DNA of 64,000 bases from Rhizaria sp. SCN 62-66. Its lineage: Eukaryota. The translations under genes were made by a program, and so were the position numbers. Below are positions 4,772 to 61,300 of this stretch, piece after piece. Position 1 is the stretch's first letter; each line of letters opens with the position of its first letter. The notes beneath the pieces were generated by a model. It made no database searches. It saw nothing but the letters and a program-made list of their open reading frames with translations, and was not told the origin of the DNA. The DNA lies in assembly GCA_001724265.1 (NCBI GenBank), contig MEDY01000075.1, positions 1-64,000 of the forward strand, written 5' to 3'.

Positions 4772-7700
4772 TTACTCGCTGTTGCGCGGAAAACTGACTG
4801 CAGCCATTAACGCTGCGACGTCGGCATCTGGACTGCACAGTGGCCGGCCAAAATGCAGCAAGAAGTTGTAGACATACGCATACGGGAGCGAGTCAAGACT
4901 GCCTTCGTTGACACTCGCCCAAGCGTTGCTCACGTCACTCGCATGCACATTCACACCCACTCGCGCATTCACATTTACGCTCACACTCGCAGTGTTAGCC
5001 GCGCTAGCGAGCGCAGCAGCAGAGTCGGCGGCAGTGCCATGAATATGAGTAATATGCGTCTTCTTGTCGCCGTTCTAGGTCGTGCTTGTGCCGTTGCTGC
5101 TACGAGCACTGAAATCGCTGCTGTTGTGGAGCGTTGTGTGATTGCTGATATTGAGCGAAGCACGCGTCTGTGCCAGCACGGCCTGGATCGAGCCCGCCAC
5201 AACATCGTCATAATACGGGTCCGCATACAGCGAGGACGCGCCCAGCGACAGGACATCATCAGCCGCCGGTCCCAGCGCCTGTGCCCACAGCCGCAACGCA
5301 GACTCCGGCAGCGCCCAGTGACCGAGGGAGGATGGGTGGCGCGCGGCGAGCTGCGGCTCGGGGTCAGGAAGCCACGTGTTATGACTTACATTCCCATTCG
5401 CGCTTGCGCTGGCGTTGTTCACGCTGCTGCAGCTAATGCTGTTGCTGCTGTTGCTGACGTTGTTGCTGCGAGGGATCGTGAGGAGGTTGAGGTTGATATG
5501 TTCGCGGCTGTGGCGGGACGCTAAGGCCGACCACGCTGCTGCTGCAGCTGCTGCTGAATGGGCCGCGATCACAGGCACCGAATTTGCAACGTTGTTACGC
5601 ATCATCGCAGAGTCAGAGTTGCAATTCACGTCAGTGTCATCAGTTGCACTGGCAGCACGAGAGTCGGCGCGGCTTACATTCCCCGCAGTACTTAGACGCG
5701 CGGCCTCAGCAGCCCAGAGCTTGCTCCGGCGATTACGCACAGCGCGTCCCCTGCGCAACACGCCCTCGGCCCACCGCACGTCGGCACTTACATGCGAAGC
5801 ACTTACATCCGAGACACTTACATTCGAGGCACTTGAACCCGAAGCACTAACCTCGTAAGTGCTTGCATTCGCATCTGAGGCGTCCGAGCTAGTGTTACGC
5901 GTGGAGGCGCTCGTGTAGGTGATATTATTGTTGGTATTGGAGTAGTACTGAGACGGCACAGGGTGTAACGAGGGGTCAGTCGACCACAGAGTCGCATGCC
6001 ACTGTGGCAACGGCACGCCGTCACCAGTCTCCATCTCCACTGCATCTGCTGTTGCTGCTGCTGTTGCTGTTGCCGCTGTTGCTGTTGCTGTTGTTGCTTG
6101 CTTAAGAACACGAGCCCTCGCCTGTGCATGTGCTTTGGCTTTGGCTTTCTCGCCAATCTTGGTCTTGACTTGACGCAACACAGTGGCAAGCAAGCGCAGT
6201 GCAGGGGAGACACTCGTTGCAGAGTACACCAGAGAGCCCGGTACCGTGGAAGTTAAGCCGCTAAAAGTGGAGCCGTCAGCGCTCAAACGAGGCGGTGCAA
6301 AGAGATCAGTGGAGTAGTAGTACAACACTAGACGCGTATACTCTTGCAAAACCCTACACAAAGCGTCAGAAAACAAAACAACTCGAAACAATACGTGAGA
6401 TCCCATAGGAAGGAAAAGAGTACCGCAAATAATTGCTATGTGAACGATTAGAGACGATAGAGAGTTAGACGTACGAAAAGAGAGAGACAATGGGCTTTGC
6501 AGGCGCTAAGATGACCCCAGGCGCAGACAGTGCCGCTGTCGTCACCGCCACCAGCTGCTGCTGCTGCTGCAACTCCTGCTGCTCCTCCAGGTCAGAGTCA
6601 CGCGTACTGGTACCGTGTACCGCATGAGCACCACGTGTACCCGGTGTGATCACCGTCGCGCCACGGTGTCGCAGCGTGAGCGCTAGCCGGGGGTCGAGCA
6701 GGAGCCCACGGCCTAGCACGACGGCCTCAACAGCACCCGTAGCCTCAGCAGCAACGGCAGCGGGACGAACATCAACAGCTGCAGCAGTAGTGCCCTGTGC
6801 GGCAGGGACAGAGCCGTCACAGTGCGCGTTTGAGACGGGGGAGCTGCTCTGAGCTGCTGAGACTGCCGCGGCAACCTGCGACGCTGCGACAAAGCCGCCG
6901 TTGAGCCGCAGCGCAGGCACAATGACAGCCACTGGCGCCTTAGACGCACACCCGTGTGAGTCAGCCGTCGGTGTTGCTGCCAAAGAGGGTTCCGTGTCTG
7001 TGCGCGCGAGTGCGAGTGAAGGCCAAAGCATGGGGGAGATACAGCCTTGGCCAGTGCTCGCAATGACGTCCTCCAAAGCACGGGCGTGCGCAAACGCTGT
7101 GTCAACGCCGTCGGCGGTCGCGGAGGCGGCTAAGTGGGCGTACTCAACGCTGCCGGGCGCGGCGGCGCGTGTGTCTGCAGCGTGCACAGTCACTGAATCA
7201 AAGTTAAGCCGCGGGAGCAGTGCGGCGGCGGCGGCGGCGCGCGCTGCGTGTGACGCGCCCGGTAAGCGGAGCTTGAGTGAGATGGGGATGCGCAAGTGGG
7301 AGCGTAAGGCAGCGGCGGAAGCGTTGAGCTGTGAAACGCAGGCCTCAGCCTCTGGAGTGAGAGTATACTGCGCAGCTGCAGTCCGTACGTGCAGGGGCTG
7401 CACTGCGGCTAGGTCAGAGACAGCGCCAGCGCTAGAGCGCGCGAGAGAGCTAGAATCAGAGATTTTGCTTGAGACGGCGTTCGCGAACGAATACTCTGGA
7501 CCTTTACGATGCTGCTGCGGAGCTTGCTGTTGATCTGGCGCGCTCAAACTAGCTCCGGAAAGCGCACCACTAGAGTTAAACGGGGTTGCATGGGCTGTTA
7601 AGAGTACCGGACTGGGTAGCGCCAATCCAGGAAGGTCGATCGTGATCTGAATCTCAGCCGGCAGCGGCGCCCGTAGACGCCACAGCGCCGCGAGCCTCCG

Positions 7701-24628: not shown

Positions 24629-27600
24629 TTATTCAAACTCGTCTAAGTAGTCGAGGTCATCATCCAGATCACCCATAGGCTCAACAGCAGCAGGCGCCGC
24701 AGCGGGTGCAGCCACAGCAGCCGCAGCAGGGGCAGCGGCGGGAGAGGCAGCAGTGGATGCGGCGGCGGGGGCCGGGGCGGGGGGCTTGACTGGCGTTGCA
24801 GCTACAGAAGCAGGGACAGCAACAACAGCAGCAGCAGGAGCAGCAGTGGCGGCGGGGGCAGCAGCAGGCTTAGAAGACTCGAAGTCGAGGTCGTCACCGA
24901 ACATGTTATCATCATCGTCGTCATCATTAATGGGCTTCGCGGCAGGAGTAGCAGCAGCGGCGGCCTTAGCCTTGGCCTCAGCCTCAGCCTCAGCCTCAGC
25001 CTTGGCCTTGGCCTCAGCCTCAGCCTTGGCCTTGGCCTCAGCCTCAGCCTTGGCCTTGGCCTCAGCCTCAGCCTCAGCCTTGGCCTTGGCCTCAGCCTCA
25101 GCCTTAGCCTTGGCCTCAGCCTCAGCCTTAGCCTTGGCCTCAGCCTCAGCCTTAGCCTTGGCCTCTGCGTCAGCCTTTGCCTTCGCCTCGGCGGCAGCAG
25201 CAGCAGCCTTCGCATCCGCCTCAGCCTTGGCCTTAGCCTCAGCCTCTGCCTTTGCCTTAGCCTCTGCCGTTGCCTTGGCTTCGGCCTCGGCAGCCGCCTT
25301 AGCGTCACCCTCAGCCTTAGCATCAGCAGCAGCCTTGGCCTCTTCAGCAGCCTTGGCCTCAGCATCAGCTCTAGCCCTCGCTTCAGCCTCAGCCTTAGCT
25401 TGAGCCTCGGCCCGAGCCTTTGCATCGGTATCTGCCTTTGCCTTTGCATCGGCATCTGCCTTAGCGTCAGCGTCAGCCTTTGCCTTAGCATCGGCCTCGG
25501 CCTTGGCTTTGGCATCGGCGTCTGCCTTGGCCTTGGCCTCAGCCTCCGCTTGTTGCTGCTGTTGTTGTTGCTGCTGCTTAGCAGAGGGCTGTTGAGCTGA
25601 CTCATCCTCAGGTAGCAAAATCACAGTCAGACTTGCATTGGCGCCGCTGTTCTTGTTGTTCGCCTGCTGCTGCTGTTGCTGCTGCTGAGGTGCCTTAAGA
25701 GCAAGCGTCATCGTATGTCCACCTGCAGAGCTAGAGCTAGAGCTAGAGCTGTTGTTGTTGTTGTTGTTGTTGAGGTTAGTAGTGGCACTGCTGTCCTCAA
25801 AGCCATCGTCATACTCGCCACTCTCCCCACCAACAGCATTCGCACGACTATTGTTGTTGTTGCTGTTGTTGTTGTTATTAGGGTTAGAGCGGGCATTGGC
25901 GTCTGGCACAAGAGACGACAACGGTGCATCAACAGAGCACAGTACAGCCTGTGCAAAGCCCCCTGCCATGGCACAGACGTCAAACCGCAACATCACAGCG
26001 TCCGCGCTAGAATGCGACTCTGCATTAGCCTGCTGCGATTGAGCTGACTGTGACGATGACTGGGTGATGAGAGCGGGGATCGAGAGTTGCACTGCCTTTT
26101 GGAACACAGGAGCAGTTGTGCCGTACACACACTCTGTCCGGTCCACAAACTCGAACTTGTCCCCCACGTGTACCCACACAAACACTGCGGCATCGCACCC
26201 ACCGGCTCCGTGGGCACTCGCGGCGGCGCTGGAACCTGTGGCCGAGCTGCTCGAAGGGAGGCCGCTGCAGGTGACTGTGAGCAGCGCGGTGCCCTTGGCA
26301 CGCGCGAGGGTAGCTTGCTTGACGGCAGCTTGGGCGCGTTGAACGGCCTCTTCTTCAGACTCAGCATTGTTGGCGTCACCGTCGCCGCTGCTGCCGTTGC
26401 CGCTGCCGTTACCGTTGCTGGGGAGAGCGGGAGCAGGGAACGTGGCGTCAATGCGCTCAGCAGCGACCTGCAGCACCAGCTCAGGCCCCTTCTCGTGCCA
26501 CCAGAGAGCGGGCAGCACGGCCGCGATCAGAGCCGCGGTGTTCTCGGGCGCAAGGACGTCGGGGTTGTCGCTGAAAACCTAAGCAACAAAAGTATATTTG
26601 AAGACATAGACGTGAGTAAAATTAAACAATAACAAATGATTAGATATGAAATAGATCATGAAAGTGAATTAATAAATATAACTCTAGTTGGTGCAGATAT
26701 GGTTGTTGTTTCGTGTTGTTTTGTAGGAGTGGGAAGTGACATACTTGGCGGAGAGTGCGGAGCGGCAGCGACACTGGCGCAAGCGTTGACCGCCCGGCCT
26801 CATCCCGAGCAAGGAAATCCAGCCTGAAGGGGCGCAGACGCTCGTAGACTGACAGAGTGGACATGATCCCGCCGATCCGGACGCCGCGGGACGAGTAGAC
26901 ACAGGTGTTGTGGGCAGCGGCGGCGGCGTCGTCGTCGTAGCCGTATTCGTCCCCGTCGTCCTCAGCATACTGCTGCTGCTGACTGTTGTGCTGCTTGTTG
27001 CCGCGGGAATTGTTACTATGGGCGAGGCAGGGGGCGCCACGACCGCCGGGCTTGGATCCCGCAGGCGGCTGCGGCCTCTTGCCGTGCTGTTGCTGCTGCT
27101 GTAGCTGCTGCTGGTCGGCGTGGGCGCTCTGCTCGCGGTCAGGGTGGAGCGCAGTGCCGCCCGCCGCTCCGGGGGGCGCATAGGGGTCATGGGCGATCGC
27201 CACCGTGCGCGGCTGATGCGGGTATCGCGAGATGGACTTGAGCCGCGCCTCTTTCTCATTATGCGCGCGGTCAAACTCGGCCGCGGAGTACACGGGGCGG
27301 CGGTTCTGGATGCGCCGCAGCAGGGCCTCGTTTTCCCCCATTACGCGCATCATCTCCCGGCGGCGACGCTCGCCGTTGAGGGTCTCCTTGACGTAGGGAC
27401 CATCGCGGCTGACGTGGGTGGTTGAGGCACCGATGCGCTCCATTTTGCGCAGAAGAATCATGTTGTCGCGCTCAATCGTCGCAGCACGCTCTAGATAACA
27501 TTAAAATTGTGCATTATATAGAAATTGAGAGGAAAGTTAGATTTCAGTCTGCTGAGTAACCGACAAGGCGGGAAAGCACACAAAAGCGATGCAAAGCGGG

Positions 27601-29824: not shown

Positions 29825-31860
29825 TTAGAGCTTGGCAGCGACCTTAGCGCCCTTCAGGGTGCCAACAACGCACTCAGGGGCGTACTTCTCCACGACATCG
29901 GCCTTGTGGATCATGTTGAACTCCTCCGAGGCGTCGCGGCCGGCGAAGAGCAGGATCGCTTGCTTGCCGCCGGGGTGGTCGTGCATGAACTTGGTGACGT
30001 TGAGGACCTGGCCGTTGACAACGGTCCAGCAGTCGGCCTCGGTGGCGTGCTTGGCGACGTCCTCCAGGGTGAACTCCTTGCCAGCGCCGGCGGCGGGGGC
30101 AGCAGCAGCGGGGGCGGCGGCGGCAGCAGCGGGGGCGGCGGGGGCGGCGGAGGAGCCGGCCTTGGAGACAACGCCGGAGTCGACGGCCTTGGCAAGGGAC
30201 TGGAGGAGGTACGCCGACGCGTTCTCACCAGAGACACGGCCGAAGACGACGCAGTCAAGCAGAGACGAGCCACCGAGGCGGTTGGCACCGTGCGTTCCAC
30301 CCATCACCTCGCCGGCGCAGTAGAGGCCCTTGATGGGGCCGGACTTGCTCTCGACCTCGGCCTTGGCGGAGGTCTTGACGCCGCCCATGCAGTAGTGGCG
30401 GACAGGGGTGATGACGGCGACGTTGAAGATGTCGTCCATGACCCAGGGGCCGTTCTGGAAGTACTGCTTGCCATAGGGGTCGTTCTGCACTCGCGTTGGA
30501 AACGCAAAGAATTTCAACAAAATGAGAGGGAAAAAAATGGGTTAGAAAATTGATATTTGAATGAAAATAGACTTGTCATGCTCTATGGATGGATAGAAAA
30601 AGACATACCTTGGACTCGGCGACCTTGTTGTAGTCGTCGAAGGTCTTCTTGAGCTGGGCCTCAGAGATGCCCATCTCCTTCGCAAGCTCCGCGCCCGAAG
30701 TAAGGCGCTTCATGAGCTTGCGGCCGCAATAGTGCTTGCAGTGCCACTCGATTTCCTTCGACGCTTTGCCGTTGAGCACGAGGCGGTAAGGACCACGCTT
30801 CTGGTTCTGCATCTCACCAGAGACGTAGTCACGGCGGCCGAGCTCGTTGCAGAAACGCTTGCCCTCACGGTCGAGCATGAGGCCACCAACGCCGCGGAGG
30901 GCCTCGGCAGCGAGGAACTTAAGCTGAGCCTCAGGCTCCTCGGGGTGAACGAGACCGGTGGGGTGGACCTAAAACAGATATAGCAGAGAGAGATAACATC
31001 GGTGAGAAATTAAACTAGAAAATATAGAGAGATATTACAGAGCAGTATTTAGATACACAAAGTTTACAAGTGTTGATATGAGCGGGATATCTAGTGTTGG
31101 ATGAAGACATGTGACATACCTGGACCTTGTCGATGTCCTTGAGCTCGGCGCCGATCTTGACAGCCATCTTGATACCATCACCAGAGGCGTGGGGACCGTT
31201 GGTGGTGGGCATGTCGAAGACATCAGGGCGGTACTTCTTGAGCAGAGAGTCGGGCTCGTAGTCAGCAGCGTAGCCACCGGTAGCGATGATGACGACACCG
31301 TACTCGGTGAAGGTCTTGCCGTTGTACTCGTACTTGGCACCGATGACAGCACCGGAGGCGTCGGTGACGAGCTCGGTGGCGCGGGCGCGGGTGATGAGAC
31401 GGGCGCGCTCGGGCTGCTTGGAAGCGATCTCCTCGTACATCTCCATCAGCGCGTAGGTGATGGTCATACCGGGGAAACGCTCAGCACCGCGGTGGGTGCG
31501 GGGGAACGAGTGGCCACCGAGACGGGAGACGAGCGAGAGGTCGAGCTTGAACTTGTTAATGAGCCACTCGATCGCGGGGGCGGACTCGCCGCACATGACC
31601 TCAGCGAGGGGGTAGGTGGCGCCGGTCTTGGAGGACGCGATAGTGTCGGCGAGGAAGGCCTCGACGGAGTCCTTGATGTCGAGCTTGATCTGGGAGGAAG
31701 TCAGCGCGGCGTTGATACCGGAGGTAGCCTTGGAGGAGGAGCCACCGAGGAAGGCGTTCTTGTCGAGGAGGAGCACGTTGGCGCCGTTCTCGAGGGCAGT
31801 GTGGGCCGCGGAGAGGCCGGAGAGGCCGCCGCCGAGCACGATAACCTTGGTCACAGACAT
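29825..31860 (-). CDS. Soluble FAD-dependent fumarate reductase (Osm1/Frd1/flavocytochrome c family) fused to a C-terminal cytochrome b5 domain; exons 31860-31120, 30968-30609, 30484-29825
   Basis: GGGLSG FAD motif, SKATSGIN, QVHPTG, AEALRG, HYCMGG and HGANRLGGSSL. Cytochrome b5 motif HDHPGG. C-terminal AKL. Confidence 0.92.
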
Positions 31861-39177: not shown

Positions 39178-42361
<3,184 letters not shown>

Positions 42362-42884: not shown

Positions 42885-44824
42885 ATGTCTCAGCTTACCC
42901 GCTCTGTTCATCAGCTCGACGAGAACGCCGGGCGCACTGCCGCTCAGCCCATGCTTCAGAAGCCCGCAGCGCGTCTTGTCGGTGGCATCCAGGCCCGGCC
43001 TGCCCCGGCTGGCGGCGTCTTCAAGCCTCTCGCCGCCGGTGCTGCGCCCACCCGCACCGCGTTCCGCGATATCAGTAACGTTGCTCCGGCGCCTGCACCC
43101 GTGAACAACGCTCTCAAGAAGCCCGTACGTTTTTCACTGCCTTTTAGCCCCTTTTCTAGCTCACTTGCGCGAGGACGTTTCACCGCGCGCCCAGCGCACT
43201 TCCAGCGCATTATACTTTATCAACTCCTAGGTTTCACATGATATTTTACTTTGTCTGAATTTAAATGGCTTAGATCTAAATAATACCAAGAGGATTTGTT
43301 GCTTCAATTGCTGGATGCATCGCTATTATCGCTTTTTGCCTTACCCATTGCTCAACGGATCGATTTTACCCTGAACCCTGTCGCCCACTCCTTCTTGTGT
43401 CCTCTGCCCCAGGTTGCCACTCAGCAGTACGCTCCTGCTGCTGCCCCGGCTCCTGTCCACTACGCTGCCCCCGTCGGCGCGCCCATGACGGATGACGACT
43501 TCCACTACACTGCTCAGGCCCCTGTTCAGCAGCTCCAGCAGCAGGCTCCCGCTCCGCAGATGGCGCGCCAGGCTACTTTCGAGGACCTCTCCCTCCGCTC
43601 CGCTGCCGCCCCCGTCCCTGCGCCGATGGCCGCGCCCTGCGCGCCCGCATTCTCCGATGATCTGCGTAACCCGCAGATGGTGAGCGTGTATGTGGACCAG
43701 ATTATGGCCCACCTCCGCGCCTCCGAGACTCGCCACCGCCCCAACGAGTACGTCCCGCTTTAAGTTGCTGTCCTTTAAATCACTCGTTCATGCGCTACAG
43801 TCTCTTTAAACCACACTCAACCTTGCTTTCCTCGGTATTCTTTATGTTTTCCTATCCGAACTATTTTTTATTATTCTGTGCCGCTCACCTCCTGTGCTTC
43901 TATCTCTCCTTCCTGTTTCGCCTCCCGCTTCACAGGGCGTACATGAGCATGCAGACCGACATCAACCCCAAGATGCGCGAGATCCTCATCGACTGGCTCG
44001 TTGAGGTTCACCTCAAGTTCAAGCTTCACCAAGAGACTCTTTTCCTCACGGTCAATATTATTGATCGCTTCCTGTCTCTGCGCCCGATTCAGCGCAACAA
44101 GCTTCAGCTCGTCGGATGCACTGCCATGCTCATCGCCGCCAAGTACGAGGAGATCTACGCCCCAGAGGTCCAGGTATGTCGTCTTTCTCATTATTTACGA
44201 ATTACTGAATTTACTCACAACATAATCGTTTTAGAATCTGACTATTTTGTCGATATGCATTGGCTTCAACTAGCTAATGTGCTAACCTTACTCATATTTT
44301 CTCTTGCTTGCTTGCGCTTTGTTTTTCTGATACTCCTTTTGTTTTCCTAGGACTTCGTGTTTGTCTCTGACCGCGCATACACCCGCGAGCAGATCCTCTC
44401 GATGGAGTCTGTCATTCTCAACGAGCTCAAGTTCAACGTCACCGTCCCTTACGCGATGCGTTTCTCCGAGCGCCACGTCCGCGTCCTCCGCCATACCCCC
44501 GAGTTCAAGGAGCTTGTCAACTTCCTCATCGAGCTCACTCTTCAGGACTACAAGTTCCTCAAGTACACAGCCAGCATGGTCGGCGCCTCGGCCGTCTCCC
44601 TCGCGCTGCACTTGACCGGCCAGCCCTCGTGGAACGAGGAGCTCCAGCGCGATGCCCAGTACACTGAGCATGACATCCGTGCCTGCGTGCTCGACCTCTG
44701 GCACCTCAGTGCGCGCGACAACCCCAAGTACCGCGCCGTGCGCCGTAAGTACTCGGCGTCGAAGTACCACGGCGTCGCGCGCATCACGATCGTTGCACCC
44801 GAGGAGGAGCCCGTTCGTGCGTGA
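42885..44824 (+). CDS. Mitotic B-type cyclin; exons 42885-43124, 43413-43747, 43936-44173, 44351-44824
   Basis: Destruction-box-like RTAFRDISN. Cyclin box [13 protein letters not shown]...LQLVG...[10 protein letters not shown]-terminal AVRRKY. Three compatible introns. Confidence 0.92.
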
Positions 44825-45785: not shown

Positions 45786-47864
45786 TTACTTGGAGTGGAA
45801 GACAGCGTTGGCGATGCTGGGGGACACGATCACGCCACCCGCCACAAGCATCTTCTTCCCATCAAACGTCAGCTCCTTGTTGTCGTTGGTCGCGAGAAGC
45901 CCGTAGACGTTCTTGATGACCTTCTCGTTGGCGCGCGCAATAACGCCCTCAACGGGGCGCTGGCCCTCGATGTACAGCCGGTCGCCGACCTTGGCGCCCG
46001 CCGGGGGGCGGAGGAGGTCAGACGCGGTGCCGTCGGCGTTGGAGCCGCCGAGAAGCATGGCGAAGGTCTTGTTGCCGAGGAAAGCGGCGGGCTTGAGGTT
46101 GGCCAGGAGGACGAATGTCTTGCCCTCGAGCTCCTCGACGGCCATCTGCTGACGGACGTTCGTCACAACCTACAGTCGAATGATCGAGTGTAAGCAAGCA
46201 CACACACACACAAAAAAAAAAAAGAGTTAAGTGAGAGCGCAAGCGTCAGCGAAGAGAAAAGAAGAAAAGAAAAAAAACACGATTATGTGCATGCAAGAAG
46301 ACAAAGACAAAAGACATTATGAAATATCAAAATATCACTATATTGTTCTCATGAATATGATTATATCTGCGTACCTGAACAGCGCCCTCGGCGTGGCCGA
46401 TATCAGCCTCGAGAATGTAGAGCTTCTCACTGCCCTCAAGCGGGCGAACGTTCTGGAGCTTACCGACACGGAAGTCGCACTTGTAGCTCTCACCGACAGG
46501 CTCAGCACCCGCCGCGCCGGCGGCGGAGGCCTCAGGCTCAGCAGCAGCGGCGGCCTCGGTGTCGACGGTGCCGTCAATGTCGATCTCAGGCTCCTCGGCG
46601 GCGTGCGACTCGTCGTGGCCCTTGGGGTAGGCGGCGGCGACGATGGCCTGCATCTCAGCCGACTGGAACTCGGCGCGGATAGGGTCAAGCAGGGCGTTGA
46701 TCTCGTACGCAACGGCGTTCTTGAGGTCGAGGGGGAAAAGCGACTTGTCGGCGTAGGCGGCCTCAAGAGCGGCGTAGCTGGGGAAGTGCATGTTGCCACC
46801 GTGCTTCTCCTCGCGACGGATGGTGAGGGACCCGTCCTTGGAGAGGGGGAAGAGGACGCGCTGCGTGAAGGCGAGGAGTCCGTTACCCTCAACGACGCCG
46901 GGGTCCGCGAAAGCCTTGCGAATCTTGGTCTCGACAGTCTCGCGCGAGTCGAGCAGGTCGATCTTGGAGTTGGGGTCGGAGGCGGACATCTTGTTGCCCT
47001 TGCCGCCGGTCAGGGAGGGAACCATGGGGTTCATGAAGTGAAGCCGCTTCGAGTAGCCGATCTTGGGGAGGAAAGTCTCGGCGTAGGTGAAGATCTTGCG
47101 CTGGTCAACACCGCCGAACTGGGCATCAACCTTGAGGTACTCCTCATCGAGCGCCTGGAGCAGTGGGTAGAGCATGCCCGAGAGCATGGGCGACGCGACC
47201 TGCTTGACGACCTCAGCGCCGGCCTTCTTGGAGTTGCGCTCAGAGGTCATGGCGGTGAGCTTGTAGACGTCGAGGGAAAACTCGCGGGAGAGCTGGTAGT
47301 CGGTACCGCGGACAAACTTGAGCTTGTCGAGGGGAACGCCGATCGACTTGAGCATCGACTTGATCACGCACTCGTAGTACGTCGTGCGAGCCTAGAGATG
47401 GAACAAAAAAGTAGCAACAAAAAAGCAAAAAGTAGAGGAGTGAGGTGTTGCTTGCAGTATACATGCAAGATAGATGCTTGATAGATAATTGTTTAACAAA
47501 TAGGAGAAAGTAGATAATTTACATAAAATGTGAAAGATATATGATGCAGGAATGATGTTTCGTTCGCGAGATATCGACATACCTGGAGGAGGTTCCAGGG
47601 CGCCTTCTGGTTGTCGAGGTAGGCGTGGAGGTCAGCGAAGAGGATGGTAACCTCGCAGCCAGCGCGCAGGAAATCGGCGACCTTGGCCATGGGGACAAAG
47701 TACGCGATGTGGGGCGCACCAGTTGTCGCAGTGCCCCAGTAGAGCTTGAGGTCGCGCTCGGCGAGGATGGTCTTGAGGGACTCAACGGCCTTCTCGGCAC
47801 CCATGACTTCGTCGAGGCCGCGGGTGATCAGCTCAACCTTCTCGGGAACGGAAAGGCTACTCAT
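45786..47864 (-). CDS. YARS: Cytosolic tyrosyl-tRNA synthetase with a C-terminal EMAP II-like tRNA-binding OB domain; exons 47864-47583, 47391-46375, 46169-45786
   Basis: [14 protein letters not shown] (HIGH-like), [10 protein letters not shown] and KMSAS. C-domain DFRVGK...KLY...LANLKPA...[10 protein letters not shown]. Confidence 0.95.
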
Positions 47865-48640
47865 CGCTAAAGAAGCTTTCTGCTGTGATAGGGAGTTCGT
47901 GGAAAGATATCAGGAAGAAAATGATGAGGTTGTGAGGAAGTTTTAGTGGCTGATTTGTGGTGCCGTCGTCGACCGCGAAGCGGGGATGGAGCAAAGACAA
48001 GGCCCGAGTAATCCACAAAACACGCAACAGAAAGAGAAAACACTCGTTTTGAAGAATCTACAGCGCATATAGTCCAAATGAAGGTGTTTCATGTGCTAGA
48101 GTTGTGTTATTGCGCGATGCGGACACGGCAGAACAAGCAAGCAAGAAGGTTGAGGTGCGCTTCGAGGACCGCGTAGTTCGAGCGCTGACAAGCTGCATAA
48201 AAGCACAACTACACGGAATAAAAAGAAAAGCAAGTAGAATACAAACGTTCAAGTCCTAGCGCACTACGCAAAACCGTCGAGAGCCGCACTGCACACTCCA
48301 CGTAAGATGGAAACACAGACGACTACGGCAGCTTGCGAACCGTTCGTGGTGGTCGTCGTCCGACTTTTTACGAACCACCGAAGTCGCTGCCACACAGAAC
48401 AGCGAGAGAGCCAAACGGTCACGATCACAATCTCATCTGCCCAGCCATCACACCTCCGTTGTTAGAAATGCCACGCTACCGAACAAATATGTTCGCATCT
48501 TTTCTGCTTATATTTTTAATAAGAGTTTCAAATTTACTTATTTACTCCCCCTGCACTCTTCCCCGCAGCCCCGCTCTTCCCGGCACAACCTGCCCTACCC
48601 CGCCTCCCTAGTCACTCCCAGCCCTGTGCACTCTTCCCGC

Positions 48641-51600
48641 ATGCCGCCCAAAGTCTACGGCCCGCCCCGCACTGACTTTGGCCCGCCTCCCCCGGGCTAC
48701 ATCCCCGGTGTCGGCCGCGGCGCCGTCGGTTTCACCACTCGCGCCGACGTCGGTCCCATGATGGCGCTGGCGTCCGGCGCGCCGTTCGTCCCCGAACGCG
48801 GACAGGGCCCCGCTGCGATCATGCGCCAGCGCGAGGCGCTCAAGGAGCTGCAGCAGAAGATTGCTGAAGACGGCGCCGCGTCGAACGAGGGCTCTCTGTT
48901 CTCTACCGGGGCGTACGAGGCTGACGACGCCGCGGCCGACCGCGCGTATGACGAAGCTGACGCGTACGCAGGAGTCAAGCGCTCCCGTCTCGCCTCTGCA
49001 ACAACCTCCGCATCAGCCAACACTGGCGGTGGCGGGACGGTTCGTTTGTCGGAGCATATCACAGCGCAGTTCGCCGACGTCCGCCGCGAGCTGGCGACTG
49101 TGACGGCGGAGCAATGGGGCGCGCTGCCCGAATCCCTCGACTACTCCCGGCAGAATAAACTCACTAACGCGTCAGTCAACCGCGTTACGCTCACGGCCGC
49201 GCCTGACTCGCTCATCATGGCGGGTGCGAGCGCGGCCGGCGCCGACGGGGCGGGGATCGACGTTGACGCGCTCGGCCGGGCGCGTGAGCACGCTCTTGCA
49301 GCCAGCCTTGACCGCGCCTCAGCGAGCTCTCACACTGTCACATCAACTAGCTCCACAAGCGCTTTGCTCGAAGATATCGATGGCACGACGGCGAGCGGCG
49401 ACGCTGCGTCCCGTATGAGCATGGGTGACGTCAAACGTCTGCGTGCACTGTATAAAAGCGCCGTCACGACCAACCCGACCCATGCGCCTTCTTGGGTCGC
49501 CGCTGCCCGCCTCGAACGCTCTCAGGTCCGTCTTCCTTACACAGGATCTATCTCTCGTTAACAAGCATGAATCTGAAATGCAGTTGTTTACACTATATTT
49601 TAACATTTTAATATTTAAGTTTATTATCTACCGAAATACTTTTGTTTAAACTCAAACCACTCACATATACTTCTATTTTAATGTATTCGCATTTGTTGTT
49701 GATTTTTCTTTGCTTTCTCTCCTCAGGGTCGTTTGGCGGATGCGCGTCGCATCATCGATCTTGCCTGCGAGCACTGCCCCCTGAGCGAAGACGTCTGGCT
49801 CGAAGCCGTTGACCTCAACCCCGGTTGCGAGCGCGCTGTGCTCGCCACCGCCGTCCGGTCCCTCCCGCGCTCACAGTCCCTCTGGCTGCGAGCCGCCAAA
49901 TCAGAGCAGGCGCCGGCGGCCCAACGCGCCGTGCTCCGTCGTGCTCTCGAGGTGCTCCCCAAGGCTGTCCCGCTGTGGCGCGCCGCCGTCGCCCTCGAAG
50001 AGCCCGACGACGCGCGCATCCTGCTGTCCCGCGCGGTCGAGCTGGTCCCCGCAGCGCTCGAGCTGTGGCTGGCGCTGGCCCGGCTGGAGAGCTACGACGG
50101 CGCGCGGGCAGTGCTCAACGCGGCGCGGCGGGCGCTGCCGGGGGAGCGCGCCGTGTGGATGGCGGCGGCGCGGCTGGAGGAGACGCGCGGCAACGATAGC
50201 AACGTCGCGGCCGTGGTCGCGGCCGCGGTCCGCTCGCTCACGGCGCAGAACGCGATTGGGACGCGGAAGGACTGGCTGAATGAAGCCGTTGCTGCGGAGC
50301 GGGAAGGGTGCCTGCTTGTCTGTCAAGCTATCGTCGCCGCTACAGCCACGCTCAACATCACCCTTGCTTCAAAGCAAGAGGCGAGTTCAAGTGACTCTGG
50401 TGCGACTGCTGCTACTCCGTTGAGTGATGATGAGCTGATTGCTGTGTGGCGTGCTGACGTCGACGCATTACTCAACAAAAACAGCGGCAATCATACCACT
50501 GCCAGCAGCAGTGTTGTGAACGCAAGTAGCGCAGGATACGTGTCTGAGAGTGGGTTCGTCGCTATCGACACAGCCCGCTCGCTGCTGCAACACGCAGTCG
50601 CCACTTTTCCCGCTCGCGAAGCACTCTGGATCACTCTCACCGAGTTTGAAGCCGCGCATGGCGACTTGACTTTGATGCGCGCGGTGCTGGCCAAGGCCGT
50701 CGAACGGTGTCCGCGCACGGAGTTGCTGTGGTTGCGTGCCGCGCGACTGGCGCGGGACTCGGGTTCTCTTGAAACGGCCCGCGGGATCCTTGACCAAGCT
50801 TTCCAGGTAAGCTACTTAAAACAATAATATGTCGTCGTTATATTTGCTAATCTTAATTAGATTTGATATCTATATGATTAATTATTGAAAATTGGTCTGT
50901 ATTCTCAATTTTGACTTCTAATACTCACATATACCTGTGATATCTTCACCTTTTTGTTGGTTTTGTTTAGGCGAACCCGAAAAGCGAGGAGATTTGGCTC
51001 GCCGCGGGCAAAATCGAGGCCGACAACGGCGACATTGCCCGCGCGCGCGCCCTGCTCGACCGCGCCCGCGAGCGCACGGGCACAGCACGCGTGTGGGTGC
51101 GTGCTGCTAAGTACGCGCGCTTCGCCGGCGACGCCGCGGCGCTGGTGTCACTGTTGACGGAAGGGGTGAAACGGTTCCCGGCGGAATGGAAGCTGTGGCT
51201 GATGCTCGCGCAACACCATGCTGCTCCGCTGTACCCCACGATCTCCGTTCTCACCGCGCAACAGCGCAACACGACGCGCTCTTCTACTATCAACGGTGGT
51301 GTTAGTTCTAATAGCGCACCTCTTAGCTCAACCCTCTCTAGCTCTAGCTCTAGCTCTAGCGCAAACGCAAACGCAAACGCTCCCACAAACGCTAGTGCAG
51401 CTGCTGGACAAAATAGCTTTGCGTTGTTGACGGAGGCTGCCATTGCAGCTGCCCGCACTGCCTTCCGCTCCGGTTCACAACACTGCCCCAATGCGGCTGC
51501 GCTGTGGGTCGAATACGTCCGCTTCGAGCGCGCGCTCAGCACGTACACCAATCTAAGTACCCCAGGCAGTGGCACGGCCTCGGCGTCGTCAGATGCGCGC

Positions 51601-52512
51601 GCGCGTGCCGTGTTAGAGCGCGCGCGCGCCGCTCTGCCGAACAGCGACGCGCTCTGGATCGAAGCCATCTACCTCGAAACCAACACACATAGCCCCCATA
51701 GCACTGCAGCCAACCTTGCCGCCGCGTTTCCCAATGCAACCGCTGTTTCTTCTGTCTCTTCTGCTTCGAACATCAGCGCGAACTCTGCGCAGGCCGCTCT
51801 GCAAACCCTCGCCCGCGCGCAAAAGGCGTGCCCGGACTCCGGCGCTCTCTGGGCGCTGGCTGTCGAGCTCGAGACGCGTCCGCAGCGCAAGGCGCGCGCG
51901 ATGGCCGCGCTGGAGCGCTGCGGCGACGACGGGCGCGTGCTGTTGGCCGTCGCCAAGTGGTTCTGGGAGCGCAGCAAGGCGGAGGAAGCGCGGAGCTGGT
52001 TTGAGCGTGCGGTGGCCGCGGCGCCGGCGTTGGGTGACGCGTGGGCCTTTTACCTCAAGTTTGAGCGCGAGCGGGTGGACGCGGCGCTGGCGGCTGCGAG
52101 GGCAGAGGCCAACACGGTCGCGGCGGCGGCGGCGGCGGCCAGCGAGGTTAAGCTGGAGCACAGCGCCCTCACGACTGCTGCGTCTGCTCCTGCTGCGGCA
52201 GGTGTGAAGAGTGAACACTCCGGTGCTATAACAGTCAAATCTGAGCTGGACACCAGCGCAACAGCAATGACTGACAGCACTGGTACCGCTCCCGCTGTTG
52301 TTGATATCGAGTCCAACGCCGGTGTGTGTGCGGCGCGCGCCCGCGTGGCGAGTGTAGAGACTCGTTGCGCTGCGGCGCGGCCGCGTTACGGCGAACGGTG
52401 GGCGCCGGTGTGGAAGCGCGATAGCGTGGTGACGCCGGCGCATGTCGCCGTGTTGAGGGAAGTTGCAGACGGGATTCGCGAGATCTTCGGGAAACCGCTC
52501 TTCTCTGGCTAA
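48641..52512 (+). CDS. PRPF6: Pre-mRNA splicing factor PRP6 (U5-102K, TPR/HAT repeats); exons 48641-49525, 49727-50806, 50971-52512
   Basis: PPPGYIPGVGRGAVGFTTRADVGP N-terminus, TNPTHAPSWVAAARLE, CPLSEDVWLEA, LGDAWAFY and PRYGERW. Confidence 0.93.
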
Positions 52513-54826: not shown

Positions 54827-56078
54827 GTTAAATATGACTCTTAGTTACTCCAGAAGTAGTTGGTTTTACAACTCCAGTTTTGTCGCAACGGCGCAATGTG
54901 TGTCGTATCGTGATTTTGTTTCTCTTGCTTCTTTTTTTAATTTACCGTACACCTGTGCTTGTCTCACATTGTTCTTTAAGTTTTTTTCGAACCTGCATCT
55001 TGATTAACTTACACCAATGCTGTTGTTCCTGTTCCTGAAGCCGTGCATCGTGCTTATCAACAACACTCTGAGGATTTAATCCTTGACGAAGTTTTTATCA
55101 GTGTTGGGTGCATTTTGATTCATTAATACATTGCATTTAATTGCTCCAATGCATTGAAGCAGTCCAAAATAAACACCTCGATAGTTTTACTGTGCGGTGG
55201 CACCAATCAATACTCTTCTCCTATTACAAGGGACAAAAAATCCGAACCGCGGGACATAATATCCGTACTTTGGCCTCATACACTCAGTTTTTTCTTCGTT
55301 CTCTTTGATGGCTTCAGTGCGCAAAAGTGTTTAAATCTGTTTCTGAAAATTAACGTCGTTCGTTTATCAAGTGAATAAAATATATAAAATATTGAAATGT
55401 ACTATATACGTTTCAACAAGTCTTCCCTTCTAGATATCTTCATAAACACCTCATGAGTCTGATTCAGCTCTCTCGATGACTTCCTGAGGTGAGTCCCAAC
55501 GACTTTTTGAAGTTTAACACGCTTATATCTTTGCATCTTCACAAAAAGTAGTAATATATGATGTAAACAAATGTTTTATATTCTCTATACACTTTTTATC
55601 TGCATAAAAACTTAAAGATTATGATGAAAGTGGCAAAACAAGAGGATCTAAAGGCGGCTCGGCGAAAATTCCAAATCTACATAGTGAAAAAATAAATTGA
55701 ATAGATGTAACAATTGTGTGACCATAGCTATGCATAAACGCCACAAACGATTTTTTTCACGAGATTTCTTTCACTAATCTCCAGAAGTAGCATCAGTCAA
55801 AGAAATGATCATATTCACTGCAACATGTATTCAAAAATCCAGTATTCAAAAATTCATACTAGGCGAGTATATATTTCTCAAATAATATAATATATCATGT
55901 CTTCACTATATAATACGTCATATGCCAAGACCAACCTAAGTTGCAGTCATCCAGTAAAACAAAGTTGAATGATGAGGAACTTCCTAATCGCAGCCACTCG
56001 TCACATTCTTGACACATTCTCTCCATAGAAAAAGTATTTTGGTCTCATATACAACAGAAGGCACTGCGACTTAACTTG

Positions 56079-57545
56079 TTAGATGACCGTGGCTTGATTT
56101 CCCGCGGCCGGCACAGGCCTGAGCGCGCCATAGTAGTGGTTCGCATCCCTGACCTCCGTCACACCGCCGGCCTGCGCCCGCAGCCTCTCTGTCTCAACCG
56201 CGTCTTCCGCGATCAACTTGCGCAGCGCGGCGTCCTGAGCGTCGCGGGTGGCTTGCGGGATCGACGCGAGGCGCAGGATTTTACCGTCCATCATGTGTAC
56301 CACGCGGTGCGCGTAGTACTGGAGATCGTTGTCATGTGTTACCATGATGCAAGTAATGCCCTCGCGGCGGGACAGCTCAACCAGCAGACTGAGGATGACA
56401 CGCGAGCTCTTGGTGTCCAAATCGCCGGTCGGCTCATCAAGGAGCAGCACGTCCGGGCAGTTCGCGATGGCGCGCGCGATGGTGACGCGCTGTTGTTCGC
56501 CGCCTGACAGCTGCGACGGGAGGTGCAGCGACCGGCGCCCGATGCCGACTTGGTCGAGCAGGAACTGGGCGCGCGCGTCGATGTCGCTGCGGGACAAACG
56601 GCCGTCGAGAATCATCGGCAGAGCGACGTTTTCGAGCGCTGTCATGGTCGAAATAAGGTTAAACTGCTGGAAGACGAAGCCTAAGTGGCGCAGACGCAGC
56701 TTCGAGAACTCGTCGTCGGTGGTCGCGCTTGTGATGCGGCGCTGTGCGATGTACAGCTCACCCTTCGAGGGCCGGTCGATGGTGCCGAGGATGTTGAGCA
56801 TCGAGGTCTTGCCGCCGCCCGACTTGCCGAGGATGACAATAAACTCGCCGCGGGCGATGGAGAGGTTCACGCCGCGCAGGGCGGGGACGCCGTCGAGGCC
56901 GAGGAGGTAGGTTTTGTGTACGTTGACGGCCCGGATGACGACGTCTTCGGGGTTAGGGATGATGATCCCGTCACTGTTACGCGTGAAATCACCCCCACCC
57001 TGTTGCTGCTGCTATTGTTGGCGGCCCTGGCTCTGGGCCTGTTGGGAGGAGATGTGGGGCAGCTGGAGAGCGGGGTTGAGGCGGGAATCGTTGTTGAGCA
57101 GAGCTGAGCCGACGCCAGAGCACGAGCCGATGTTGCTGTTGTTGTTATTGTTGTTGTTCAGAGCGTAGGCGGAGAAGGAGGAGGAGACGTTACCGTTGTT
57201 GTTGCGCGGGCTGTTGTCGTCCTCCTCGAGAAGCTCCGACTCCTCCAGGGTGTTGGCGGCGTTGTTATTGTTGGTCTCGTCAGGGTGGACCTGGGATGGA
57301 GACTTGCTGCGGCGGCGGCCACTGTTGCTGTTAGGTGCTGTTGAAGCGTCTGCGAGCAAGTCCGGCGACGGCTGGACGGAGCGGAGAGGCGCGCTGCCCG
57401 TCGTCGTGGTCACGTCAGCGCCACCAGCGTTGTTGTTGTTCGCGGCGGAGGCAGAGGGGGGGAGGTTCGAGTCCGATGAGAGGGAGGAAAGGGGGTAGAA
57501 GTCAAAACCGCCGGGCCCGGTCTGAGACGTGGGGATCTGGCTCAT
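56079..57545 (-). CDS. Stand-alone ABC ATPase (LolD/MacB/FtsE-like; resembles Dictyostelium AbcH type) with an in-frame TAG at 57012-57014
   Basis: ORFs 57012-57545 and 56079-56870 share one frame. VNVHKTYLLG..ALRGV, Walker A GKSGGGKT, LGFVFQQFNL, LSGGEQQR, LLLDEPTGDLD and MVTHD. The only in-frame ATG upstream of Walker A lies before the TAG. Confidence 0.88.
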
Positions 57546-58341
57546 GGCTCACAGCGCACAGCAACACGAAACGGGGGGCGAGGTGTGGTACGTGTAATGC
57601 TTCGGGATGATGTGTGGTGGAACGGGGAACTGAGGCAGAGTGGGAGGAGGGAGGCGAGGGGAGAGTGGCGACGAGACAGGGCGTGTGAGTGATCCACAGC
57701 GATAGGCAATGGACTTCAAGAAATACAGATATCAAACAATAAGAGTATAGCAACAATGAAGTAATGTTACAACTGTAGTGGCTCTCTTAGCGGTCGAATA
57801 TGCCCGGTATATATGAACGAAGATCCCCGCCACAAACTCCATTAATCGCCAAGCGATGCAACTCGACCCAGCCACAGCCACGGTCACGCATCAAATCAGT
57901 CTTATAAAGCGCGCTTTTGGTAAGGACAGTGATCAGTATTCGAAGCAGGTTTTATTATGCTATCGTAGACAAGTCGGATGACAGACTTTCAAATATATTA
58001 TTATCATTCAATCACATCACAGCGTATTATATATAACAAAAGCTCTCACACAACACTTTGAACGATCTCTCTTACAAACACAACTTAACTAGTAACAACA
58101 AGGATAGGTACCCTACACTTGCGCAAACGTCGACACATACTTTTTTTTGTTTTTTGTTTCAATTGTTTTGTTTCAAAACTAAAGAAACAGTTACAACACA
58201 TACTTATATAAAAAATCAACAACAGGATGTCCGCACAAAGCAATATCCACAAAACAACCATTGAAGCAGCACATATTACGATGCCCTCGTTATCGAGAGA
58301 CACATCTCATCTAAGGGTGCCTGAGCGAGAGGTACTTAGAT

Positions 58342-61300
58342 TTAGAGCTCGCTGAGGTCGCCCTCATCCATGCCGAGCGAATGCATCATGCCCCGGCCAA
58401 ACGCCACTTCCCCCGTCTTGCTACTATGGCTGTGGCGCTCGTCCTCCTCCTCAGCCTCCCGCTGCCGCTGCCGCTGCTGCTGCTGCAGCTGTAGCTCACG
58501 CTCACGCAGTTCACGGTCAAACTGAGCCTTTTCCTCCGCCGCCGCAGCCGCCAGCGCGGCGTCCCCGGTCTTGGCTGCCGTCTCAGCCTTGAGAGTGGTG
58601 AGCGCCAACGCGGCGTCGCGCTTCGCGCGCTCTTTGACGCGCTCCATCCACGCGCCCCCCGACCCCGGCTTAACTTTATCCGAGGCTGCTGTTGAGTCAG
58701 CAGAGTTGCCGTGGCTGGGCGAGTGCGTGGTCGAGGTGGACAGCGCGGCCGGAGTCGCGTCTTCACGGAGACGGTGGGTTTGGAAATGCAGTGCGTCGTC
58801 CAGCGTGAGCGCAGAGAGCTCGGGGGCAGCGCACCCCATGAAGACACGCCAGTTACTCATGACACCGAGGTCAAAGGGGTTGGAATATAAGCCGTCTTGC
58901 GCGAGGTAGGAGTAACGGCCACGGTTGATCGACTCGTTTGTGGTGAGATTACTGTTGATTTGGCCGAAATGCTGTACCGCGAGCGCAGTCACAAGCGCAC
59001 TGTGTCAAATATGTTCGAATCATACGTTACAAAGCAGTGTTGTGGCAAATAATAAATTAATAAACGTGAGTTTAGAGTCCAAAGATAGAGTCATGGAAAT
59101 GTAAAAATAAGGTTGACGATAGTTGAAGAGGTATTTCACATTATAACACAACTTTAGGATTATAGATCGGGTATATAGATATATATGTTGTAATTCTTGA
59201 ATAAAGATGCTGCGTACAGGTAGATGACGTGGTGGTAGACCCACAGCGTAAGCAGTGGCCGCGCCACCGCCGCCGTCAGCCAACCCACTGGCAGACCGGC
59301 CGCGTCGGTCACGTGCATGAGGTACACCGTGTACAGAAGCGGGTAAATGAAGTTGACGCCGGCCATCGCCGTGCAGAACCAGAAGAAGGAGTTGTGGTTG
59401 CCCGCGCCGATGTCGGTTCCTAAAAAAGGGCAGTGGTGGTCGAACTGGGCGACGCACCGGTGGCACTTGGGGCAGTGCTTCGACCGCAGAGGACGCACGA
59501 TACGGCAGGTTGAGCAGAGCTGAGAGGTCGAGATCGTGAGGGAGTCGTTGTTGGCGACAGGGGAGGACATCTTGAGAGTTGCCATCGTCGTCGCAAGGGA
59601 CATCGTCTTGACGTAGCCACGGCTATTATTCCCATTAGTCCCGTCATTGTTACCGGTGGTGGAGTTGAGAGTGTTCATCTCAATATCATCCTCGTTGTCC
59701 GAGATGTCGTTGCCGTTATTGCCGTTGGAGCCGCTGCCGAAGCCGGCATACTCGCCCCTGCTCGGTCCCCCCGAGCACAGCGCCAGAGCCCGGCCCCCGC
59801 AGTCGCCCGCGGCAGAGCGCAGAGCCAGCGCGGAGCCGACGGTGACAATGCCGCAGCGCGCGAGCACGCCGCCGTCGTCGCCGTCGCCGCCGGGGACGCG
59901 GGTGAGCGCGCAGTGGGCGAGCGAGCTGTGCGGGGCGATCGGGGCCAGAGCGGCCGTGGCCGGGGAGGCCAGAGCCACCGCCAGGGACGCCGAGGGGCCC
60001 GCGTTGGCGACGGGGGAGCCAAGCAGCGGGTAAGGGGACGCGAGGTTGAGGATGTCGCTGACGTCGTCGAGGTCGTCGTTGAGCGCGAAACCGGCTGACG
60101 CGGCGGCGGCGGAGGCCGAGGCGGCGGCGGCGGAGGGCGGGAGACCGAGCTCGTTGGGCGTCTGGAAGCTGTGGCCGAGTAAGGACGCGTACCGACGCTG
60201 GTGGGCTTGGTCGAGCTTCACGGCGGCGATCACGCGGGGCTCGGGCGCGCCCAGGGCAGAGAGGTACAGGGCGTGGAGGCGGGAGAAGGAGGGAACGCCC
60301 GCGGTCGGCGCAGACCACGGCACCAGACCACCTAAGAGTTATAATGCAAAGATTGGAAAGTCAATTATCAAAAAGAAAAAGTTATGAAAAGTTGAAATTC
60401 AAGGAAATTATATCTTTTTGTTGATGTAGGAAGAATATATCAGTGAGAGAAGTGCTTTGTTGTTGGTTTCAGACGTACCAACCTCACCGATGACGGTACG
60501 GAGCCAGAAGTAGATCGAGGCAGCAAGGAAAAAGATCAATACCAAGGCGCCCTTGGCGTTATAGGAGAAAATATTGCCAAATTGCGTAAAAGTGATCAAG
60601 GTGCCAGATGTGTAGAGGACAAACGTCCACATCACCAGCGGGCCACGGCAGTACTAAAAAGCAAGCATATTTTACATCATGAAAAAGAAATAAAGATGAA
60701 CGTGAGCAAAACAAAAATGTAATATATACATAGAAAACTACACGAAGACGGCACAACTAAATTGAAATTTCGATTAAGTAACATCTTGGTATATAAAAAA
60801 ATTCATTTCGTAAGCAAGAGACAGAAAACGACGCACCTCGACCAAGTCGCCAATCTTGCCGACAAAGCCACAGAGCAGATCCCTCTGAATCCACTGCCAG
60901 CGGCGCATGACGGCCGCGTTAGTCTCGCACGCCTTGTACTTCTTGCGGTAGAACTCGTACTCTTCGCGCTGCGCACGCGTGGCGCAAAACTCCATGGGAG
61001 TCATTTTAGCCTTGTTTTTGTGGTCGAGCATGGGCATGAAAGCAGCGTTCTCGAGGTAGACCTTGACGGTGTCGATGTTGCCCTGTCCGAAGGCCCAGTG
61101 AAGCGCAAGGCAGCTGTCGTCGTCCTCAATCCAGGGGTCGGCGCCGTTGGCAAGCAGCCACTCAACAGCACGCGTGTGGCCGGCGTACGAGGACCAGTGT
61201 AAGGGGGATTTCCGCTTAGAGTCGAGCGCGTTGATGTTGGCGCCACGAAGGAGGCAGATGTCCATGAGGAGGGTTTGGCCGCGCTCGGCGGCGTGGTGAA

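Follow-up and report, generated by a model that had tools for sequence, protein, structure and literature searches.

The stretch of DNA considered here (the window) is the 64 kb at positions 1 to 64,000 of contig MEDY01000075.1, from assembly GCA_001724265.1 of Rhizaria sp. SCN 62-66, and what merits attention in it is the codon TAG, present in frame within two genes of the minus strand. The first encodes an ABC ATPase in an open reading frame (ORF) of 488 codons that extends from an ATG at 57545, directly preceded by an in-frame TGA (57549-57551), to a TAA at 56079-56081, and contains a single internal stop, a TAG situated among glutamine (Gln) codons. The second is without a Pfam family, and its TAG has no such neighbors. 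Each of the TAGs is in frame, is fixed in several assemblies and has on either side sequence homologous to uninterrupted orthologues, and no credible intron removes either of them. Coordinates are collected in Table 1.

The two interrupted genes

In the ABC gene, the 531 nucleotides (nt) 5' of the TAG have a guanine plus cytosine (GC) content at third codon positions (GC3) of 0.81 in the frame of the TAG, as compared with 0.82-0.83 in the ABC part, and their codon-usage log-odds are +78 bits in that frame versus -105 and -143 in the other two; upstream of the ATG, in 57546-57760, no comparable coding periodicity is found. The description of the region as GC-rich in a first-pass annotation of the window is borne out, both flanks being GC-rich as well as coding. 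That annotation had also placed the TAG in frame among Gln codons, and so it is, the minus strand reading CAA CAA TAG CAG CAG CAA CAG in the longer context CAG AGC CAG GGC CGC CAA CAA TAG CAG CAG CAA CAG GGT. The string it quoted, from CAG GGC to the final GGT, lies at 57029-56997, and the span assigned to it, 56998-57035, covers it with ends that are a few bases off.

What follows the TAG includes a complete nucleotide-binding domain. Pfam family PF00005 (ABC_tran) is matched at 1.3e-29, with 104 bits against a cut-off of 25 and over profile positions 1-136 of 137, and matches to the PDB entries for MJ0796, LolD and MacB begin 25-26 residues past the TAG, the best of them being MJ0796 (2.6e-59), then LolD/MacB (1e-49 to 1e-51). 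The motifs GKSGGGKT, LSGGEQQR, LLLDEPT and VTHD are all present, and we take these to be Walker A, the signature, Walker B and the H-loop, respectively. The peptide after the TAG reads QQQQGGGDFTRNSDGIIIPNPEDVVIRAVNVHKTY...GKSGGGKTSM. Its first Met is thus beyond Walker A, and any downstream product started at an ATG would be without the P-loop; the absence of an ATG between TAG and Walker A, an earlier observation, is confirmed by this translation. The near-cognate start codons ACG and ATC do occur between the TAG and the first strand of the domain.

The closest relative, P0122, is a protein of 435 amino acids encoded by a single ORF, with 79% identity across 305 post-TAG residues (BLASTP); the ABC part also matches P0001, identity to P0001/P0122 being 79%. 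The N-extension of P0122 aligns with the pre-TAG region, Met1 to Met1 (BLASTP E=0.007). Local alignment of the two N-extensions gives a score of 73, reached by 2 of 1000 composition-preserving shuffles (43 +- 7.4), and for the first 30 residues a score of 46, reached by 1 of the shuffles (21 +- 4.6). Since N-extension and ABC domain are in one ORF in P0122, the ABC TAG splits what in the relative is a single protein, and the contention that an intact ATPase needs both the ATG at 57545 and passage through the TAG is upheld. A variable low-complexity N-extension ahead of the conserved first strand was present in all seven relatives inspected. One homologue carries the name abcH2 (Symbiodinium), and the nearest named homologues are mixed, several being rhizarian (Paulinella, Bolivina, Nonionella, Leptophrys and Lapot). 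When metagenome contigs were scanned for the ABC domain, the search yielded, among the matches listed, only distant homologues (L001-L080, 39-50% identity) and no close relative or other strain; the conserved pattern GFVFQQFN dominated those matches.

In the second gene the coding score holds one frame through the TAG at 5075. The only relative found among 1.84 billion representatives, P0241 (536 amino acids, 39% identity), aligns on either side of it. The 100 amino acids after the TAG, taken alone, match P0241 residues 474-534 (E=4e-18, 50% identity), and the match stops 2-3 residues short of both C-termini. A conserved C-terminal motif is accordingly encoded past the TAG, and the gene needs passage through it. 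Two of approximately 25 genes in the window thus require TAG to be passed for conserved sequence to be reached. Gene callers break both, and public protein sets list the ABC ATPase solely as pieces of 177 and 240/263 amino acids.

Authenticity of the TAGs and the bearing of introns

That the T of the ABC TAG is a slip of sequencing or assembly in a CAG/CAA repeat is very unlikely, its chance being next to nil. What such a slip has in its favor is the proneness of low-complexity repeats to error and the presence of cross-mapping joints touching 57000. Yet the exact upstream product of 177 amino acids is recorded on 7 contigs from three assembly sources (JGI, Logan and ENA), which tells strongly against the sequencing error that the first-pass annotation had named as a hazard. 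The exact downstream products (240 and 263 amino acids) are likewise on 7 contigs in all, identical to the window, and the fused 488-amino acid form was not found in a search able to show it, the best match being 79% identical. Further, RNA run X5 covers the bin containing the site without a listed difference, and the second TAG, whose upstream product of 443 amino acids has exact copies on 4 contigs, is in non-repetitive sequence. All contigs bearing the exact ABC products represent the same strain and are silent on conservation between strains; P0193, P0239 and P0238, being identical to the window, are similarly uninformative on conservation of the TAG. A strain about 3% diverged does exist, as evident from X7 record 21, a contig from a polyA library that spans 56695-57103 colinearly across the position of the ABC TAG and has 12 mismatches to the window in 409 bases. 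The match of one X5 contig to the ABC gene breaks off within the domain, at 56864, beyond which the contig runs on for at least 255 unrelated letters; AC rather than AG stands at 56864 in the genome, so this is not a canonical splice, and the contig is probably chimeric.

The RNA evidence consists of assembled contigs, as distinct from raw reads, and is interpreted where these cover the window. Spliced cDNA contigs from X5 verify five introns with GT..AG joints in genes near the ABC gene (Table 1). Their donors are GTACGT, GTATGT or GTACGC (GTAYGY), and a pyrimidine tract precedes the terminal trinucleotide, which is TAG in three of the five and otherwise CAG. They are 177-288 nt long, with a GC content of 0.34-0.45, and score negatively for coding in every frame. 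Intron ends account for many of the TAGs that look in-frame in this genome. The ORF-joining TAGs at 44348 and 47392 are verified acceptors, and those at 20154, 26579, 39872, 14778 and 31015, each preceded by a stretch rich in AT or pyrimidines (GC 0.24-0.40), probably mark the ends of introns or lie within them, as opposed to being sense codons.

The two TAGs at issue are different in this regard, neither being enclosed by the intron pair typical for the genome (GTAYGY donor, YAG acceptor, 177-288 nt, low GC). No GTAYG donor is present between 57545 and the ABC TAG. Pairing of the GTAACG at 57193 with the TAG/CAG acceptors at 57012, 57009, 57006 and 57000 would break the frame (182, 185, 188 and 194 nt). 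To that extent the earlier dismissal of this donor as being in the wrong phase stands; what it missed is the AAG at 56945, with which GTAACG forms a frame-keeping candidate intron of 249 nt. The candidate was rejected on composition, as it is coding-like (GC 0.58, GC3 0.78, coding score +0.43), and its pyrimidine tract is 0.53 versus 0.63-0.87 in verified introns. When junctions were sought, as the first-pass annotation had advised, contigs of four runs gave no joint in 56000-57600, and an intron ending at one of the TAG/CAG acceptors is unsupported; X5 has its five spliced joints in neighboring genes. X4 joints at 40852-41076, 51364 and 57000 have sides of just 21-23 letters and were set aside as cross-matches of low-complexity repeats. 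In every run, low-complexity stretches of this sort at 40832-40870 and 51336-51369 (Asn/Ser/Gln codon repeats in an insertion of lysyl-tRNA synthetase and in PRP6) attract massive cross-mapping, with depths as high as 458, and spurious joints. Little weight is given to the colinearity of X7 over the ABC TAG because X7 also contains unspliced sequence, its record 14 entering a verified intron. For the second TAG, AG-phased GTA-type donors that could define an intron removing it fall within residues conserved in P0241, and such an intron was rejected.

Synthesis of the ATPase without the TAG being read, whether from a downstream start (a non-AUG codon or an internal transcript), through an unusual intron or by RNA editing, has accordingly only a slight chance of being the explanation. 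The near-cognate starts 3' of the TAG and before the first strand, and the frame-keeping pair 57193-56945, give it some foothold. The pair, however, is coding-like, its donor departs from the consensus, its acceptor is AAG and its pyrimidine tract is weak; the four runs lack joints in the region, and X5 is without base differences anywhere, such that editing is not seen where X5 covers. As coding sequence with homology to the orthologue's N-extension, the 177 codons 5' of the TAG belong to the protein, and the second gene would be left unexplained.

Table 1. Positions of the interrupted genes, verified introns and other features of the window
Feature	Position	Strand	Remarks
ABC ATPase, N-terminal low-complexity extension, 177 codons, from ATG 57545	57015..57545	-	Coding; same frame as TAG and ABC domain
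ABC ATPase, in-frame TAG, codon 178 of 488	57012..57014	-	CAA CAA TAG CAG CAG CAA CAG; C at +4
ABC ATPase, four Gln codons, linker, complete ABC nucleotide-binding domain and C-terminal tail	56079..57011	-	Pfam, PDB, relatives; ends TAA 56079-56081
Gene without Pfam family	4772..6406	-	P0241 aligns both sides of TAG; ends TAA 4772-4774
In-frame TAG of that gene, codon 444 of 544	5075..5077	-	ACG ACC TAG AAC GGC; A at +4, no adjacent Gln codon
Verified intron	43125..43412	+	X5 cDNA contigs
Verified intron	43748..43935	+	X5 cDNA contigs
Verified intron, cyclin gene, 177 nt	44174..44350	+	X5 cDNA contigs; GTATGT...TAG, GC 0.34; TAG acceptor seemingly joins ORF 43790..44824
Verified intron	46170..46374	-	X5 cDNA contigs
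Verified intron, tyrosyl-tRNA synthetase, 191 nt	47392..47582	-	X5 cDNA contigs; ends TAG
PRP6	48260..52512	+	At least three exons
Fumarate-reductase-type flavoprotein/cytochrome b5 fusion	29825..31860	-	At least one intron inside
649-codon ORF	24629..26578	-	Repeat of type AEAKAKAEAD
CFAP97-like exon	26640..27461		

In the window more broadly, coding blocks are GC-rich and spacers AT-rich, and both strands carry genes. Pfam identifies Dcp2, an M3 peptidase, CFAP58, a CFAP97-like protein, a cyclin, lysyl- and tyrosyl-tRNA synthetases, PRP6, a DHHC palmitoyltransferase, an ankyrin protein and a fumarate-reductase/cytochrome b5 fusion. The runs in which its sequence is present belong to 9 studies and sample bioreactors, wastewater or activated sludge, 5 runs carrying at least half of its sampled words; it is a contig of an uncultured, intron-bearing protist from bioreactor/wastewater metagenomes. 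The fusion protein is a soluble flavoprotein (FAD_binding_2) with a C-terminal cytochrome b5 domain. The 649-codon ORF has a repeat of more than 200 residues together with poly-Asn and poly-Gln runs, and probably continues the CFAP97-like exon over an intron ending at TAG 26579. PRP6 is unusually divergent, being 27-40% identical to the 9 hits aligned over most of the query: 27-31% to the named and most unnamed full-length hits and 40% to one metagenomic relative, P0247. One named match reaches 54% and covers just 17% of the query. The tyrosyl-tRNA synthetase fell only into generic eukaryotic clusters.

Possible translation of UAG and the alternatives to it

Scans of the window for stops flanked by coding sequence depend on the length of flank demanded. 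With 60 stop-free codons on each side (102 stops), only TAG 57012 and TAG 5075 score >0.2 on both sides. With 50 codons TAG 5075 and TAA 52050 pass, with 30 codons TAG 57012 and four others, and with 18 codons and the best of six frames TAG 5075 and TAG 50092; each of the two TAGs therefore misses some of the filters. The extra sites are all antisense to genes, three of the four host genes having Pfam support. No in-frame TAA or TGA comparable to the two TAGs emerged from these scans of the window, and no TAG is present within its Pfam-matched exons. Comparison of TAG with TAA in runs of CAR codons, another check that had been suggested, was made within the window, where TAG 57012 alone is in frame, the remaining matches being out-of-frame Asn (AAC/AAT) runs or antisense. 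Of the putative gene ends, 21 in number, 18 are TAA, three TGA and none TAG; these are taken from ORFs, not each of them homologue-confirmed, and the ends of the lysyl-tRNA synthetase and CFAP58 genes are not among them. Many terminators are TAA followed by G, often as TAAGTAC (4062, 11399 and 29825; that at 58342 reads TAA ATC TAAGTAC), which may favor strong termination or form part of a 3'-end signal containing the stop.

On present evidence the balance tilts modestly to UAG being translated organism-wide, fully or partly, and likely as Gln, termination being left to UAA and UGA. The TAG at 5075, supported by an orthologue on either side, strengthens the notion, already in the first-pass annotation, that TAG is translated; the further parts of its claim, a change of code and Gln as the amino acid, are not established by it. 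Ribosomes would translate UAG, and UAA, the main stop, and UGA would terminate genes. The ABC ATPase would then be one protein of 488 residues from the ATG at 57545, an amino acid, most likely Gln, being inserted at the TAG, and the same decoding would carry the gene at 4772-6406 to its conserved C-terminus. Organism-wide decoding might be mediated by a tRNA with anticodon CUA, or by near-cognate tRNA-Gln, acting together with an eRF1 poor at UAG. As TAG is so rare, reassignment would be young or only partly efficient and would represent an early or ambiguous stage, not a code already established.

Several considerations weigh against translation of UAG. TAG occurs twice in approximately 14,000 codons (an estimate from ORF lengths) and is absent from six long genes totalling 5,898 codons. 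With window codon usage, in which G-ending codons are prominent (e.g. 171 CAG versus 40 CAA for Gln), 66-68% of random nonsense mutations would yield TAG, and that both sites are TAG carries little weight for this reason. The same applies to the count of internal stops, two of two TAG-ended coding ORFs versus none of approximately 22 ending in TAA or TGA; its Fisher-type p of ~0.004 is not leaned on. Absence of TAG from the 21 gene ends is weak evidence, TAA being at ~85% of ends. Both TAGs are in non-conserved, unalignable low-complexity stretches, where they would do least harm if leaky. No TAG is at a conserved residue, precluding the amino acid being read from alignments. The ORFs of the relatives P0122, P0241 and P0247 are uninterrupted. 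Scans of the 64 kb for tRNAs and with Rfam found nothing, and the window has neither a tRNA gene nor an eRF1 gene. The RNA evidence is thin, all runs being contigs.

Under the main rival reading the code is the standard one, both TAGs being ordinary nonsense mutations fixed in the strain, the ABC product partly rescued and the second gene truncated or weakly read through. This is possible, though its probability is put well short of even. Readthrough of a few percent by near-cognate tRNA-Gln may suffice for ABC function, and the ABC site (CAA TAG CAG, C at +4) has a context documented as leaky in yeast, as reported in the parts consulted of a 2026 preprint (PMC13192750). The preponderance of TAG among potential nonsense mutations, its absence from the long genes and the location of both sites in non-conserved, low-complexity segments all fit. 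Against it, a compact genome would have to carry two independent premature stops among about 25 genes, each ahead of a conserved part. Both TAGs persist identically (on 7 and 4 contigs) with no frameshift or other decay seen, and the downstream ABC domain retains a GC3 of 0.83 and 79% identity. The second TAG, which is without Gln neighbors and has A at +4, is not in a known leaky context, A at that position being a good termination context, and none of the gene ends is TAG.

The preceding also bears on the identity of the inserted residue, which is presumed to be Gln. The Gln-run had been put forward as the most direct pointer to Gln, a view that is not established, as a tolerated CAG-to-TAG nonsense allele is equally expected to have the same context; the run shows only that the TAG originated from CAG by a C-to-T change. 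If UAG is translated, Gln is nevertheless judged about three times as likely as another residue. Organism-wide translation as a non-Gln amino acid, e.g. leucine (Leu), a sub-case of UAG translation as favored above, is unlikely. UAG is Leu in the rhizarian exLh and in ciliates, according to the portions consulted of PMC5304391 and PMC11687900. Rhizarians account for several of the closest named ABC homologues, a low-complexity tract tolerates any residue, and the second TAG offers no hint of Gln. Weighing the other way, the ABC TAG is within a run of seven Gln-position codons and one transition from CAG, the commonest Gln codon, a synonymous origin being simplest; PRP6, with its 27-40% identity to nine full-length-aligned hits, is too divergent to place the taxon.

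A narrower formulation of UAG translation, advanced tentatively and with appreciable doubt, is that a non-ciliate protist is at an early stage of reassigning UAG from stop to sense, probably Gln, with the first sense UAGs in tolerant low-complexity regions. UAG would already have gone from gene ends, and sense UAGs would be arising by CAG-to-TAG and other changes. To our knowledge, reassignment of UAG alone with UAA kept is restricted to few eukaryotic lineages, the described cases are all UAG-heavy, and early steps have never been seen. A literature search, which did not extend to supplementary files, found no described code change for such an organism. Should UAG be sense at about once per 7,000 codons, the genetic code would be displayed just after a stop codon was freed, an instance in nature of a new code arising through codon capture or an ambiguous intermediate. 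Should the TAGs instead be nonsense mutations, the ABC gene would provide a natural premature stop in a polyglutamine tract tolerated via tRNA-Gln readthrough; we know of such tolerated stops otherwise only from yeast mutants. The organism is accessible through existing wastewater metagenomes and metatranscriptomes.

Comparison with known systems

The ABC ATPase resembles nucleotide-binding domains of the MJ0796/LolD/MacB type, and eukaryotic soluble 'ABCH'-like ATPases, in having a complete domain with all motifs. Unlike MJ0796, LolD and MacB, it has a low-complexity N-extension of 200 residues and a C-terminal tail of approximately 60 residues, both common to protist relatives, and no membrane partner was identified.

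For decoding, the comparisons that follow draw on the consulted parts of three sources. Reassignment of UAG only, with UAA as main stop, is reported for Iotanema spirale, a member of the Fornicata (Gln), for the rhizarian exLh (Leu) and for phyllopharyngean ciliates (PMC5304391, PMC11687900). In I. spirale there are 204 UAGs in 126 genes, 1.6 per gene and ~8% of Gln codons, and genes end with 104 UAA, 15 UGA and no UAG; for exLh the figures are 384 UAGs in 71 genes (PMC5304391). The organism here is like I. spirale, Hartmannula sinica and Trochilia petrani in having UAG inside genes, UAA dominant, UGA minor and Gln as the likely meaning. It is also like exLh (Sainouroidea) and uncultivated phyllopharyngean ciliates, where UAG is Leu, in that only UAG would be reassigned with UAA and UGA kept as stops. 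A difference that adds to the points raised above against translation of UAG is its frequency, ~0.08 per gene as compared with 1.6 in I. spirale and 1.6-5 in the known lineages. I. spirale, moreover, has UAG at hyperconserved Gln positions and the eRF1 substitution T32G, whereas here no TAG is at a conserved position, and, unlike I. spirale, the present organism has introns of 177-288 nt and GC-rich genes. In contrast to exLh, UAG is rare here and the Gln-run context points to an origin from CAG.

A different type of parallel is with readthrough in standard-code yeast, where Q-to-stop alleles in a Gln-rich domain are reported to give 5-7% full-length product, with Gln inserted and wild-type-like growth, and where a Q-stop-Q (QXQ) motif and C at +4 each promote readthrough (PMC13192750). 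As in the QXQ alleles snf5-Q225X and snf5-Q267X, the ABC TAG is in a Gln-rich low-complexity domain with flanking Gln codons and C at +4, and in both cases Gln is the residue expected to be inserted. Both the motif and C at +4 are present at TAG 57012 and lacking at TAG 5075 (ACC TAG AAC, +4 A). The yeast cases, by contrast, are mutant alleles read at 2-7% efficiency under the standard code, and a parallel with them leaves both the TAG at 5075 (T-T-stop-N-G) and the missing TAG ends unexplained.

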